Below the pieces are notes generated by a model that saw only the letters and a program-made list of their open reading frames with translations, ran no database searches and was not told the DNA's origin. From sequence record OP279344.1: a stretch of DNA of 64,000 nt; one strand, 5' to 3'. This document shows, piece by piece, positions 3,315-40,363 of the stretch; the first letter of the stretch is position 1; each line of letters begins with the position of its first letter. Source of the DNA: Escherichia phage P1. The position numbers and the translations under genes are program-made.

Positions 3315-3912
3315 CTCGGTACCAGCGGTGAAAAGATCCCCCTGTTGAGCACGGCTAACACATGGAGTGCACGCCAGACTTTCAACGGCGGGATCACCGG
3401 GGCGCTGACAGGGAACGCCGATACCGCAACGAAATTGAAAACAGCCAGAAACATTAATGGCGTCAGGTTCGATGGTTCTGGTGACATTAATATCAATACT
3501 CTGGTATCGCGCGGTCGCGTAACGGCCCTGGAGGCGAATGCACAGGGAACATCCGGGATTCAGCTGTATGAGGCATACAACAATGGCTACCCTTCCCCCT
3601 ATGGCAATGTGCTTCACCTTAAAGGTGCCACCGCTGCTGGCGAAGGTGAGTTATTCATTGGCTGGAGTGGCACGAGCGGTGCCCATGCGCCCGTACATAT
3701 CCGTTCGCGGCGGGATACTGATTCTGCCAACTGGTCTGAATGGGCGCAGGTCTATACGTCAAAAGATTCAATTCCCGGCGTCAATGCCAAAGGGGATCAG
3801 GATACCTCTGGTAATGCGGCTACAGCGACCAAGTTGCAGACAGCATGTACTATCAACGGTGTCTCGTTTGATGGTTCTAAAAATATTGAGCTAACGGCTG
3901 AAAATTTAAATC
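3303..3912. repeat. Left inverted repeat of the invertible C-segment (about 610 bp)
   Basis: Near-identical reverse complement of 6945-7554; the 504-aa and 1016-aa ORFs share the encoded [14 protein letters not shown]...SKNIELTAE block. Confidence 0.85.
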
Positions 3913-4859
3913 TTGAGCGAACAGTAGAATTAGCCGCTGGGTCATTGCAGAAAAATCAGAACGGCGCGGATATTCCTGGAAAAGATACCTTCACAAAAAA
4001 TATTGGTGCATGTCGCGCTTTTCACAGTTCTATTAGTACAGGTGCAGGGAACTGGACAACGGCACAATTGATTGAATGGCTGGATTCTCAAGGGGCATTC
4101 AATCACCCATACTGGATGTGCAAATGTTCATGGTCGTACGGCAATAATAAAATTATAACCGATACTGGCTGTGGAACTATTCATCTTGCAGGTTGCGTTA
4201 TTGAGGTTATGGGTAATAAAGGTGCCATGACCATCCGTGTAACAACACCAAGCACTTCCAGCGGTGGCGGAATCACTAACGCTCAATTCACTTATATTAA
4301 TCATGGTGATGCTTACGCTCCTGGCTGGCGACGAGACTACAACACGAAAAACCTGCAACCTGCATTTGCTTTAGGGCAGACAGGAAACAGGGTTGCAAAT
4401 GATAAAGCTGTTGGCTGGAACTGGAATAGCGGTGTTTATGATGCAGACCTAAAAGGCGCATCAACATTAATTCTTCATTTCAATATGAACGCGGGTAGCT
4501 GCCCGGCTGTACAATTACGCGTGAATTATAAGAACGGCGGTATTTATTATCGTTCAGCGCGTGATGGTTATGGATTTGAGGCTGACTGGTCAGAGTTTTA
4601 CACCACAACCCGCAAACCCTCTGCGGGGGATGTTGGTGCATATACGCAGGCAGAATGTAACTCAAGGTTTATTACAGGTATTCGCCTGGGCGGTCTGTCA
4701 TCTGTCCAGACATGGAATGGCCCCGGCTGGTCTGACAGGTCAGGTTATGTCGTTACGGGTTCAGTTAACGGGAACCGTGATGAATTAATTGATACAACAC
4801 AGGCAAGGCCAATTCAGTATTGCATTAATGGGACGTGGTATAACGCGGGGAGTATTTAA
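3345..4859 (+). CDS. Sv' alternative tail-fibre variable segment, promoterless in this orientation
   Basis: Frame is open from the cix site and has no start of its own; the N-terminal 190 aa duplicate the middle of S, then diverge into a different C-terminus. Confidence 0.75.
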   Translation: MSTANTWSARQTFNGGITGALTGNADTATKLKTARNINGVRFDGSGDININTLVSRGRVTALEANAQGTSGIQLYEAYNNGYPSPYGNVLHLKGATAAGEGELFIGWSGTSGAHAPVHIRSRRDTDSANWSEWAQVYTSKDSIPGVNAKGDQDTSGNAATATKLQTACTINGVSFDGSKNIELTAENLNLERTVELAAGSLQKNQNGADIPGKDTFTKNIGACRAFHSSISTGAGNWTTAQLIEWLDSQGAFNHPYWMCKCSWSYGNNKIITDTGCGTIHLAGCVIEVMGNKGAMTIRVTTPSTSSGGGITNAQFTYINHGDAYAPGWRRDYNTKNLQPAFALGQTGNRVANDKAVGWNWNSGVYDADLKGASTLILHFNMNAGSCPAVQLRVNYKNGGIYYRSARDGYGFEADWSEFYTTTRKPSAGDVGAYTQAECNSRFITGIRLGGLSSVQTWNGPGWSDRSGYVVTGSVNGNRDELIDTTQARPIQYCINGTWYNAGSI

Positions 4860-36054: not shown

Positions 36055-36071
36055 ATTGCTCTAATAAATAT
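36055..36071 (+). promoter_or_regulatory. C1 operator upstream of the uhr-hrdC-dmt operon
   Basis: ATTGCTCTAATAAATAT, 16/17. Confidence 0.6.
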
Positions 36072-36427
36072 TGTTTTTTATATCGTGTTTTCGGTACCAT
36101 TCAGCCATCGCCCTTCAATGGGCATTTGTTTGGAGTCGTCAGATGCAGATGGAGCTAATAAGCCGCAAGGAGTTCGATAGCCGTGTAACCAGCGGTGAAC
36201 TCGACAACTTGCAGGCTATCAAGGTGAAAGAAGGCTTTTGCCTCATTGGGAATCAGAGCGGAACAAATCGCGTTTTTATGCTTCGCCGTACGGATTTGAA
36301 GCCATTTGTCTGGAAGAACGAAATTGGTCCCAGCTCATACGCTCAAACGAGGGGGTGCCACAACTTGGCCTTTTTCTACAAAGACGAGCTTTCTGTGGTT
36401 GATATTCAAGGGTTACAACATGTTTAA
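36071..36427 (+). CDS. Small protein upstream of hrdC; start uncertain
   Basis: ORF track; first in the operon after the operator. Confidence 0.3.
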
Positions 36428-37325
36428 GCACTGGAAAAATATTACTATTTATAAACTTTCTCGTGAGGCGGATCTGACCGACTTAGAAGATAAAAAGAAA
36501 ATGATCCTTTTCACGCCATGCGGTAGTCAGGATATGGCCAAGTTCGGTTTTGTATCGCCATTTGGTGATAATTCCGAAGTTATCGCTATGCATGGAAATG
36601 GTTTTATCCTTGTTGAAGCAAAGCGCGAAACAAAAATTCTTCCCCCGCCGGTTATCCAGCGAGCTATTCAAGAAAAAATTGAAAAACTTGAGCAAGAACA
36701 AGCGCGTAAACTGAAGAAAACAGAGAAGGACTCCCTGAAAGACGAAGTTCTGCATTCTCTTCTGCCACGGGCTTTTTCAAAGTTTTCTGTTATCCAGGCG
36801 ATCTACGACGGTTCAACTAAACGTATCTATATCAATGCCAGCGCGCGGCAGGCAGAGGATATGCTCGCGCTTATGCGTAAGTCTCTGGGTTCTCTTCCTG
36901 TTGTGCCACTAAGTGTTGAAAATCCCATTGAGTTAACGCTGACCGACTGGGTACGTGATGCTAGTGCTCCACAGGGATTTCAAATGGGGGATGCGGCAGA
37001 ACTTAAGGCAGTGCTTGAGGATGGCGGTATCGCCCGAGTGAAAAAGCAGGATTTGGGAAGCGATGAAATTTCCACACACCTGGAAGCTGGCAAGCTCGTC
37101 ACTAAGTTGGCACTCGACTGGCAGAACCGCATTAAATTTACACTGGACCATAACTTCAGCATTACCAGCGTCAATTTTGCGGATGAATTGCTTGAGCAGA
37201 ACTCTGATATTGATAGTGAAGATGTTGCGCAGCGACTGGACGCAGATTTCTTCCTATTGACCAGTGAAATTTCGTGCCTGGTTGATGCTCTGGTAAATGC
37301 CCTTGGTGGAGAGGCTAAGCAGTGA
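36420..37325 (+). CDS. hrdC: RdgC-like recombination-associated protein, about 301 aa
   Basis: N-terminus [16 protein letters not shown] resembles the RdgC start (MLWFKNLMVYRLSR); start taken at the internal Met. Confidence 0.7.
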
Positions 37326-40300
37326 AAGAGCTGTGCTATGGATCTGTTTGCAGTGGAATTGAAGCCGCGAGTATTGCCTGGGAACCGTTGGGTATGCGTC
37401 CGGTTTGGTTTGCTGAAATCGAGCCTTTTCCATCGGCCGTTCTTGCGCTCCGCTGGCCCCATGTCGCCAACCTTGGCGACATGACAAAACTTGCCAAAAA
37501 AGTCTTGGCTGGGGAAATCGAATCCCCTGACGTGCTCGTCGGGGGAACACCATGTTTTACCGCGGGGCATATGGTTCTTTGTAAAAATGGTTATAAACCA
37601 ATAGAAGATGTTTGCCCTGGCGATTACGTAGTCAGTCATCTCGGGCGGTTACAACAAGTAAAAAGAGTTGGTTCAAAAATAGCTAATACGGGGTTACTTA
37701 ATGCCGTTGGGCAGCCTTTAGGTATAAGAACAACCAATGACCATCCCTTCCTGGCTGTTCGGTGGAAAGCCCAAAACACCCGGAAAAATGGCACATATTT
37801 TAAGAGAGAGTTGTTGTCTGAACCGGAATGGCGAGCAGCATGTGATATGCCGGGATATCAATGGTGCGCTCTAACTAATTTCAATATTGCATCTCCAGAT
37901 ATTTGTTCTCGGTTCTTGTCTGAAGAACAGGCTATGTATCTTGCGGGCGCTTATGTTGGCGATGGATATATTAGGAGATGGAGAGGTAAATCTAAGAAGG
38001 CGGTTGTTTTTGGCATAAATTGCCAGAAATTGAGAAAGTTTCATTGCCGCATACCAGAAAACATATTTTCCGTGGCAAGCGAAATCCGAGGGAGCATCAA
38101 AGTAACCTTGAATGATACGTGTTATGCCAATTGGCTTAATGAACATTTTGGCGAGTTAAGCCATGCTAAGCGTATCCCTGCATGGGTGATGTCGCATCCA
38201 TTGCGTCATGTGTTTTTACAAGGCTATCTTGATACTGATGGGACACCAAGTGGTAAAGCGGGATTTAGAATTAATAGTGTTAGTCCTGCGCTTGCTTGGG
38301 GCGTTGCGGGGTTGTCACAGACTTGTGGTTATGTTTCTTCGGTCAGCTTTATTGAAGTTGAGCCCAAAAAAGTGATCGAGGATCGCGTGGTAAATCAACG
38401 GAATTATTATCAGGTAACAATCTGCCCGCAGAAATTGTCACGTAAATCAAGATTGGCTCATGGAATGCTTTTACGAACAGTCAAAGAGTTTAAATCGGTA
38501 GGCCTAGATACTGTATACAACATAGAAGTCGAAGGTGATCATTCCTATATCCTCAATGGTGCGGTGGTCCATAACTGTCAGGCATTCAGTATCGCGGGAT
38601 TACGTGGTGGGCTTGATGATGAGCGTGGCGCGCTAACTTTAAAGTATGTGGAGCTTGCAAATGCAATTGACGACAAACGGGCTGAGTCATTTCTCAAACC
38701 AGCCGTTATTGTCTGGGAAAATGTCCCAGGAGTCTTGTCATCGGCAGATAACGCCTTCGGATGTTTCCTTGCCGGATTGGCTGGAGAAGATGCGCCATTT
38801 GAACCAGGTGATCGACCTGAATCAGGAAAAAGTAACGCGTTCTGGCGGTGGGATGGCAAAACCGGTTGCCATGCTCCAAAGTGGCCGCAGTGTGGTTGTA
38901 TTTATGGGCCGCAGCGAAAGGTGGCCTGGAGAATCCTTGATGCCCAATACTTCGGAGTGGCACAACGACGCCGACGCGTGTTTGTTGTCGCAAGTGCTCG
39001 AACAGACCTCGATCCCGCAACGGTACTTTTTGAGTTCGAAGGCGTGCGCCGGGATATTGCGCCGAGCAGAGGCGAGGGGAAGGAAACTACCAGATATACT
39101 TCAAACATCGCTATCAGATCTTGCGATGATACAAACATAGTTGCCATGGCACATGGGCAAGGAGGGGCTGAGATAAAAACCGATAATTCGGCACCAACTT
39201 TAACATGTAACCATGAAGCACCAATTGTATTGCTCGGCGACGGTAGAATACGCCGTCTTACCCCTGTCGAATGTGAAAGGCTGCAAGGTTTTCCTGATGG
39301 GCATACGTTGATCCCTACGGAAAAGCGTAAAAAAGTTTCTTCAGATGAACTGGCATACCTTCGCAATAACTATCCTGATTTAAGCGAAGAAGAGGCCGCG
39401 ATGCTTGCAGCTGACGGACCGCGTTACAAAGCGATCGGCAATAGTATGGCAATACCAGTAATGCGCTGGATTGGCGATCGGATTACTAAGGCCGTATGTC
39501 GGCAGAAAGAAGGAAGTGAAACAAAAGAGCGAAAAGTTAAACCAGCGGCAGAATTCGAACGGTCCATATTCAAATGGGCTGGTGGAAAATTTGGTGTTCT
39601 GGAACAAATCTTTCGCTATTTGCCAGAAGGGAAGCGCCTGATTGAACCTTTCGTTGGTGGCGGAGCTGTCTTCATGAATGCCGGATACCAGGAAAATCTG
39701 CTAAATGATGTGAATGCTGACCTGATTAACTTTTACAAGACTCTGCAACGCGAGGCGCATTCACTTATCACTCTGGCACATCGTTTCTTCCAGGACTACA
39801 ACACACAGGAAGGATACCTGGCAGTACGGAATGCGTTTAACAAACAAGTCTATGATGATTTACATCGCGCAGCGGCGTTTTTGTTCCTGAACCGACATTG
39901 TTTTAACGGATTGACGCGTTACAACCAGGCCGGTGAGTTCAATGTCGGTTATGGGAAGTATAAAACTCCGTATTTCCCATTACAGGAGATGGAAGCCTTC
40001 CTCGGTGCGGAAGGGCGGTCTGAGTTTGTATGCGGTGATTTTGCAGCGGTGATTGAAGCTGCCGGAGAAGGAGATGTCATCTTTTGCGATCCGCCGTATG
40101 AACCGCTTCCAAATACAGAGGGATTCACGAACTATTCCGGTCATGACTTTAAGTTTGAAGAGCAAAAACGCCTGGTGTCTCTGTTGACGGATGCTCATCG
40201 TCGAGGTGCAAAGGTTCTCATTACTAACAGTGGCGCGCCAAACATCAGAGAGCTTTATCATGACAGTGGCTTCAGAGTGGAACCTCTTTTTGCCAGACGT

Positions 40301-40363
40301 TCTGTGTCTTGTAAGGGGGACACTCGAGGTGTAGCTCATGACGTTTTGGGTATATTGCTCTAA
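37322..40363 (+). CDS. dmt: Dmt bifunctional DNA methyltransferase: N-terminal C5-cytosine MTase interrupted by an intein + C-terminal Dam-like N6-adenine MTase
   Basis: C5 motifs I ([11 protein letters not shown]), IV (GGTPC...QAFSIAG, split), VI (ENVPG), VIII (QRRRRVF), [15 protein letters not shown]; Dam motifs [20 protein letters not shown]; GTG start overlapping the hrdC stop. Confidence 0.9.
37553..38575 (+). mobile_element. Intein (341 aa) with LAGLIDADG homing-endonuclease domain inside dmt
   Basis: Block A CFTAGHMV, block [15 protein letters not shown] and LQGYLDTDG, block G VVHN followed by Cys; excision rebuilds [12 protein letters not shown]. Confidence 0.85.

Follow-up and report, generated by a model that had tools for sequence, protein, structure and literature searches.

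The dmt gene of Escherichia phage P1 record OP279344.1 raises the question of why the encoded DNA methyltransferase carries 341 additional residues in the middle of a catalytic motif. We analysed a stretch of 64,000 nucleotides (nt) of this record, hereafter the window, to which all positions refer. The whole window is P1-like plasmid, with NZ_CP016549.1 as the best PLSDB match (98.9% identity across 25 kb). Translation gave an uninterrupted open reading frame (ORF) of 1013 amino acids at 37322-40363 on the plus strand, which DNA similarity identified as dmt of P1-family phage-plasmids. The N-terminal part of its product matches C-5 cytosine DNA methylase (PF00145, TIGR00675), and the C-terminal part matches the Dam family of adenine methyltransferases (PF02086; TIGR00571, 249 bits). 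As judged from sequence and a structural model, the insert is a class-1 intein with a monomeric two-motif LAGLIDADG endonuclease, located at the catalytic cysteine of the C5-cytosine methyltransferase (C5-MTase); its activities are predicted. We consider it probable that it is a canonical intein of this class, which splices and homes as proposed below.

The insert lies between GGTP (ending with Pro77) and CQAFSIAG of C5-MTase motif IV. We aligned the protein with the intein-free Dmt of P1 AF234172 (754 amino acids) and MH422554 (672 amino acids) and with the Dmt of phage RCS47 (1095 amino acids), and the gap in the two intein-free proteins corresponded exactly to residues 78-418. Excision in silico yielded a junction sequence identical to that of both intein-free alleles, and C5-MTase motifs I, VI, VIII, IX and X are intact in the resulting protein. 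The first residue after the insert (+1 Cys) is aligned with Cys81 of M.HhaI, the cysteine of its PCQ motif (M.HhaI stretch AGFPCQAFSISG). This cysteine is the catalytic nucleophile of C5-MTases, and the +1 Cys would thus serve both as the splicing nucleophile of the C-extein and as the catalytic Cys of motif IV. Because the codons of Cys1 and of the +1 Cys are both TGT, the boundary of the insert is ambiguous by 3 nt at the DNA level. The gene is divided as follows:

37322-37552, plus strand: N-extein, 77 amino acids, from C5-MTase motif I (CSGIEAAS) to GGTP of motif IV; aligned with M.HhaI residues 18-80
37553-38575, plus strand: intein, 1023 nt, Dmt residues 78-418 (341 amino acids, 38.3 kDa, pI 9.3), class 1 (Cys1 ... 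His340-Asn341)
37553-37744, plus strand: N-terminal splicing region, block A to block B; C1, T61 and H64 invariant in 10 inteins
37553-37576, plus strand: block A, CFTAGHMV (Cys1)
37730-37744, plus strand: block B, TTNDH (Thr61, His64)
37940-38242, plus strand: LAGLIDADG endonuclease core, from Pfam LAGLIDADG_3, conserved residues, the structural model and Foldseek
37940-37966, plus strand: LAGLIDADG motif 1, LAGAYVGDG (Asp137)
38168-38170, plus strand: conserved Lys206, inside AKRIPAW (38165-38185)
38216-38242, plus strand: LAGLIDADG motif 2, LQGYLDTDG (Asp229)
38513-38575, plus strand: C-terminal splicing region, block F (Asp329) and block G; TIGR01443 above cut-off
38555-38575, plus strand: block G, terminal NGAVVHN (His340-Asn341)
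38576-38578, plus strand: +1 Cys codon TGT; aligned with M.HhaI Cys81, invariant in 10/10 aligned inteins
38576-40363, plus strand: C-extein, comprising the remaining C5-MTase, the Dam-type N6-adenine MTase and the stop codon (PF00145, PF02086, TIGR00571)
38576 to ~39550, plus strand: C5-MTase part of the C-extein, motifs IV-X, with a short-type target-recognition region
~39563-40342, plus strand: Dam-type N6-adenine MTase (TIGR00571 dam, 249 bits; DPPY motif present)

Profile searches with the insert gave 35.1 bits for Pfam LAGLIDADG_3 (cut-off 22.5), 28.5 bits for Pfam Hint_2 (cut-off 28.4) and 25.9-28.9 bits for the NCBIfam model intein_Cterm, TIGR01443 (cut-off 15.6). A profile built from the insert and its relatives matched PI-SceI/VMA1 and PI-PkoII (E ~3e-13). 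In an alignment of 10 inteins with 23-52% identity, C1, T61, H64, N341, C+1 and K206 were invariant, D137 and D229 were conserved in at least 90% of the sequences, and D329 and H340 in about 90%. An AlphaFold2 model of the intein (pLDDT 91.8, pTM 0.89) has helices at residues 124-137 and 218-229, and its pattern of helices and strands fits a pseudo-dimeric LAGLIDADG core. The top Foldseek matches of this model in the PDB were PI-SceI (E 4e-17), the TliVMA intein (TMq 0.63), PI-PfuI and PI-PkoII, with E values from 1e-17 to 1e-11 for PI-SceI, TliVMA and PI-PfuI; mini-inteins and the free-standing LAGLIDADG enzymes I-SceI, I-AniI and I-OnuI were matched as well.

These results bear out most of a preliminary description made from the letters of the window, which had placed a 341-residue intein at 37553-38575 in the PCQ motif. 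Translation and the exact alignment gap confirm this placement, and the motifs that it quoted (CFTAGHMV, TTNDH, two LAGLIDADG motifs and a terminal VVHN) are each where it had put them, an agreement that goes far beyond chance expectation. Its expectations that excision would rebuild the methyltransferase motif and that the +1 Cys would coincide with the catalytic one agree with the junction and the M.HhaI alignment given above, and the search with intein and homing-endonuclease profiles that it had suggested gave the matches listed. It had also predicted products of ~74 and ~39 kDa; by computation, spliced Dmt has a mass of 74.5 kDa and the intein one of 38.3 kDa, from a precursor of 112.7 kDa.

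PI-SceI (from VMA1 of Saccharomyces cerevisiae), the archaeal VMA inteins, PI-PfuI and PI-PkoII share with the Dmt intein a Hint domain split by a two-motif LAGLIDADG endonuclease, as well as Cys1, the TxxH and HN motifs and the +1 Cys. They are its best structural and profile matches, yet they are only 11-17% identical to it. The Dmt intein is also shorter (341 amino acids compared with 454 in PI-SceI chains), and host protein and organisms differ.

Could the insert instead be another module of the Hint family, such as a bacterial intein-like (BIL) domain, or an inserted domain that is retained in the mature enzyme? Its N-terminal 70 residues do match the BIL structure 2lwy (E 9.5e-11). However, BIL domains, which occur in variable, non-conserved proteins, have neither an endonuclease nor the canonical HN and nucleophile at the C-terminal end. 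In Dmt an endonuclease domain, HN and the +1 Cys are all present, and the matches over the whole length go to inteins of the PI-SceI type. Moreover, the host site is a conserved catalytic loop. A retained domain would split the PCQ loop, and the orthologues lack precisely this segment. We reject both forms of this explanation, which we regard as hardly credible. A class-3 intein was also ruled out, since Cys1 is present and invariant, block B (TTNDH) contains no Trp and block F contains no Cys. Origin from a transposon or insertion sequence is unlikely, although no search for repeats was made: the insert is in frame, free of stop codons and homologous to inteins from end to end, and its edges are the Cys1 and +1 Cys codons. 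Its GC content is 0.430, compared with 0.545 in the N-extein and 0.501 in the C5 part of the C-extein, and its GC content at third codon positions is 0.37, compared with 0.52 in the N-extein and 0.43 in the entire C-extein.

The preliminary description had called an intein in a phage DNA methyltransferase unusual, which needs to be qualified, since such inteins are not unusual. Inteins in N6/N4 and C-5 methylases of actinophages are reported in Kelley et al. 2016 (PMC5050341), Gosselin et al. 2023 (PMC9957025) and bioRxiv 10.1101/2025.01.02.630785, the last of which, an intein survey, already includes C-5 methylases in its list of hosts. The actinobacteriophage cases resemble the Dmt intein as LAGLIDADG inteins in orphan phage DNA methyltransferases. 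The intein of mycobacteriophage cluster F (26.8% identical) occupies a different site in a different type of methylase, N6/N4 (QMHV|C...KN|CPLQFD).

Homologous inteins at the very same site are found in many phages. Using tblastn against annotated phages, followed by translation, we identified them, in each case unannotated, at PC|Q in Mannheimia phage vB_MhS_587AP2 and prophages of M. haemolytica (47.7%), in gp50 of Propionibacterium phage B22 (30.6%), in gene 120 of E. coli jumbo phage A4 (27.5%) and in Lactobacillus phage Nyseid (27.3%). Protein searches revealed homologues with 47-52% identity in other proteobacterial C5-MTases and 29-32% in actinobacterial ones. When we searched 1.84 billion representative proteins with a profile, the 148 closest hits included at least 87 that carry the intein in motif IV of a C5-MTase. 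The same-site inteins share the insertion pattern (G/S/F)P|C...HN|CQxxS. By sequence and position, we assign the Dmt intein and these relatives to one insertion-site family (C5-MTase motif IV, PC|Q). The relatives are 27-52% identical to the Dmt intein, and their host methyltransferases are single-domain proteins without a Dam fusion.

Some members of this wider group show additional peculiarities. The Mannheimia copy is degenerate: at four loci (L073-L075, 6001-8321; L088, 1264-3584) the C-extein is frameshifted into a separate 177-residue ORF, which directly precedes an HNH_3 homing-endonuclease gene and then an integrase, and the contig collection contains the same 439-residue protein in 859 indexed blocks. 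Among the representative proteins, four (P0034, P0040, P0085 and P0102) carry an intein at a second C5-MTase site, motif VI (..WENV|C...HN|C/GAxS), and P0034 has one intein in motif IV and another in motif VI. Several intein-bearing mycobacteriophage methylases (records H150-H168) are labelled 'anaerobic ribonucleoside reductase large subunit' or 'DNA helicase', and phrog_26446, the best PHROG match of the Dmt intein, is also named as a reductase. It looks as if these labels were transferred through similarity of the inteins and not of the host proteins.

The preliminary description knew of no intein in Dmt of the P1 family, and our full-text literature search likewise found no description of one in P1 or dmt. 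In the passages that we searched, the three actinophage methylase papers cited above do not mention P1, dmt or Enterobacteria, and Novikova et al. 2016 (PMC4760082) do not mention methylases. The P1 dmt intein thus appears to be undescribed, but it is of a known and widespread kind. Public annotation calls these Dmt proteins (1013-1148 amino acids, hundreds of records) merely 'Dam family methyltransferase', and PGAP applies the label 'LAGLIDADG family homing endonuclease' to the insert segment only where dmt is frameshifted.

How common is the intein among P1-like elements? Among 5426 complete E. coli genomes, 492 contained dmt; the intein was present in 152 of these (31%; 2.8% of all genomes), nearly always on a plasmid, and 339 had an uninterrupted junction. 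In PLSDB it was found in 133 of 492 dmt-bearing plasmids (27%), listed under Escherichia (118, including E. albertii and E. fergusonii), Salmonella (14) and Shigella (1). Twelve of 67 P1-like loci in IMG/VR and 4 of 17 phage records with dmt (RCS47 and vB_EcoM-Ro157c2YLVW, two records each) also carried it. All full-length copies that we examined had precisely the same length, 1023 nt, and shared at least 99% identity. The intein-free Dmt of P1 (AF234172), P7 and MH422554 belongs to the same gene and operon under the same C1 control, with exteins 92-97% identical at the protein level; it differs by the absence of the 1023-nt insert and by a Pro77 codon CCT instead of CCA.

Three copies need separate mention. 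Strain 06-00048 carries a chromosomal copy (L077) whose intein and flanking extein haplotype are the same as in its plasmid copy (L071), apart from a frameshift in dmt of L071, and L077 can therefore not be counted as an independent homing event. In L005 (IMGVR_UViG_2721755710_000007), a TAG nonsense codon at dmt codon 62, upstream of the intein, makes dmt a pseudogene with an intact intein. In L072 (NZ_CP099329.1, E. fergusonii; 3501-4002), dmt ends inside the intein, at intein nt 502, and is followed by tail-fibre assembly genes; this short copy is a rearrangement and not a mini-intein.

We then compared the inteins with their surroundings. Two lineages can be distinguished. Lineage A (this window, RCS47 and others) occurs in dmt backgrounds with exteins of 672, 754 and 807 amino acids, and lineage B (E. 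albertii, E. fergusonii and a Salmonella plasmid) in 672- and 754-residue backgrounds; altogether, at least three dmt backgrounds with different target-recognition regions harbour the intein. Across nine full-length intein-carrying alleles, nucleotide diversity was 0.0038 in the intein, compared with 0.015-0.018 in the exteins more than ~120 nt away. The immediate N-flanks of the two lineages differ, and the bases G216, G219 and A222 of the lineage-B flank were seen in 0/58 intein-free alleles. The intein-free alleles have four C-flank haplotypes within 30 nt of the junction, and all four were also found adjoining the intein, which places some breakpoints no more than 24 nt off the junction and others more than 120 nt off it. 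An intein that invades new alleles and takes along co-conversion tracts of differing length would be expected to leave such a pattern, and the comparison points to recent horizontal spread.

The -1 base A231 (Pro77 CCA) was present in every intein-carrying allele that we read base by base, compared with CCT in 58/58 intein-free alleles, and is the only extein base that is always linked to the intein. Three further candidates, T128, T184 and C210, separated 13/13 intein-carrying from 58/58 intein-free alleles within the phage and IMG/VR set, but failed as fixed markers in E. albertii, E. fergusonii and Salmonella plasmids. We found five site variants among intein-free alleles; a common one, GGTACGCCT^TGT, was never seen adjoining the intein. 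No precise-excision allele was present among the 339 intein-free E. coli genomes, the closest differing at 4 of 220 bases from the excised lineage-A junction.

Whether the endonuclease itself drove the spread is a separate matter. The intein might splice while its endonuclease is inactive or irrelevant, so that it moved as a passenger of general homologous recombination and of the clonal spread of P1-like plasmids. We regard this as possible, if somewhat doubtful. The modules of dmt are shuffled independently of the intein (exteins of 672, 754, 807 and 862 amino acids), intein-carrying and intein-free alleles have polymorphisms in common beyond ~120 nt, and the intein has remained unfixed at 27-31% despite intein-free alleles with apparently identical sites. 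On the other hand, both catalytic Asp residues and Lys206 are kept across inteins of 23-52% identity and in 10/10 P1-family haplotypes. In addition, the breakpoints cluster very near the junctions (24 nt or less in several alleles), diversity of the intein is four to five times below that of the distal exteins, and no allele of precise loss was seen in any of the 339 intein-free E. coli genomes. These observations speak against a passenger. Endonuclease-driven spread is nonetheless a putative interpretation, because dmt recombines readily in any case.

Several findings weigh against an intein that splices and homes. About 70% of dmt alleles are still intein-free, and 7 of the 58 intein-free alleles carry a 54-bp site equal to the lineage-A flanks save for the -1 base; the persistence of such near-identical sites means that the endonuclease may be weak or dead, or that opportunities for homing are rare. 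As a hot-spot of recombination with shuffled target-recognition modules, dmt could have acquired the same mosaic pattern by ordinary homologous recombination. Furthermore, Pfam Hint_2 barely reaches its cut-off, Pfam Intein_splicing stays below its own, and the estimate of selection given next is based on 24 sites only.

Segregating sites among the 10 P1-family intein haplotypes numbered 11 (non-synonymous) and 13 (synonymous), with a pN/pS of 0.24; stop codons were absent and all key residues unchanged, which indicates purifying selection on the intein. Comparison with distant relatives (Mannheimia, P0012) gave no usable dN/dS ratio, because dS was saturated. These data bear on the idea that the intein has decayed and no longer splices, leaving the C5-MTase permanently broken and Dmt maintained only for its Dam activity, which P1 needs for pac cleavage. 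Dam and not C5 methylation is the documented function of P1 dmt, being required for pac cleavage in dam-negative hosts (PMC12707154); the P1 annotation credits Dmt with C5 activity only as 'perhaps'; and degenerate relatives exist (the frameshifted Mannheimia prophage, L005 with its nonsense codon and the frameshifted L071). Nevertheless, every splicing residue is preserved and subject to purifying selection, the other C5 motifs are intact in intein-carrying alleles, and the length is fixed at 1023 nt in all full-length copies examined, whereas an insert that does not splice would be free to gain insertions and deletions. We therefore judge decay to be improbable.

If the intein splices and homes as predicted, when would its products be made? 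The upstream region contains the following elements:

36055-36071, plus strand: C1 repressor operator Odmt, identical to the annotated Odmt of P1 AF234172 (attgctctaataaatat)
36071-36100, plus strand: sigma-70 promoter Pdmt, one base different from P1 AF234172
36143 (uhr), 36420 (hrdC/rdgC), then dmt, plus strand: operon driven by Pdmt

Derepression of the prophage would allow transcription from the C1-repressed Pdmt and synthesis of the 112.7-kDa precursor. As Odmt and Pdmt are conserved, precursor and endonuclease should be made upon derepression; this is the time of phage genome replication and recombination, to which endonuclease synthesis may be linked. Splicing would follow the established intein pathway, from which we take the steps: Cys1 undergoes an N-S acyl shift, the +1 Cys attacks the thioester, and cyclisation of Asn341, aided by His340, frees the 38.3-kDa intein. 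The ligated exteins would form the 74.5-kDa Dmt with a restored GGTPCQAFS active site. According to the preliminary description, methylase activity would depend on splicing. This probably applies to the C5 activity, but the claim need not extend to Dam: the Dam domain lies entirely in the C-extein, and therefore only the C5 activity would necessarily need splicing, whereas Dam activity may be independent of it. Once freed, or already as part of the precursor, the intein would cut intein-free dmt across ...GGAACACCT^TGTCAGGCATTCAGTATCGC..., and repair off an intein-carrying copy would introduce the intein together with a variable length of flanking extein.

A more far-reaching reading combines a live homing element, sweeping through the P1-family phage-plasmids of Escherichia and Salmonella, with splicing as a post-translational switch. 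The two cysteines on either side of the splice site, Cys1 and the catalytic +1 Cys, could conceivably be trapped, be it in a disulfide or through some other block that depends on conditions. If so, the C5 (anti-restriction) activity would be uncoupled from the Dam (packaging) activity of the same polypeptide, and C5 methylation would be turned on in certain conditions of lytic growth alone. We consider this combination unlikely.

To our knowledge, E. coli is usually regarded as lacking native inteins. The value of the dmt intein is practical more than conceptual: it is a natural polymorphic intein of E. coli, present in ~30% of P1-like dmt genes, for which intein-free targets, two lineages and variable co-conversion tracts are available in a genetically tractable phage. 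It offers a natural system for the study of splicing, homing frequency, co-conversion length and target-site resistance.

The exteins show variation of their own. Between C5-MTase motifs VIII and IX, the target-recognition region (window 39070-39260) is modular across P1-like elements (loci L001-L070). The intein-free extein lengths are 672, 754, 807 and 862 amino acids, L077 implies one of 744, and the target-recognition blocks have no sequence relation to each other, which suggests that recombination swaps different C5 target specificities. The P1 laboratory reference AF234172 (L003 position 3542, dmt nt 220) has a unique G74W change, turning GGTPCQ into WGTPCQ beside the catalytic Cys. None of ~70 other dmt alleles has this change, which might leave the reference strain with an inactive C5 domain.

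Standard P1 features elsewhere in the window are the C4 antisense RNA with its a1/b1 targets (Rfam RF01695, RF03163), tRNA-Asn, tRNA-Thr and a tRNA with a CAT anticodon. These RNA, target and tRNA features lie at 19292-19497, 41036-41189 and 42831-42906.

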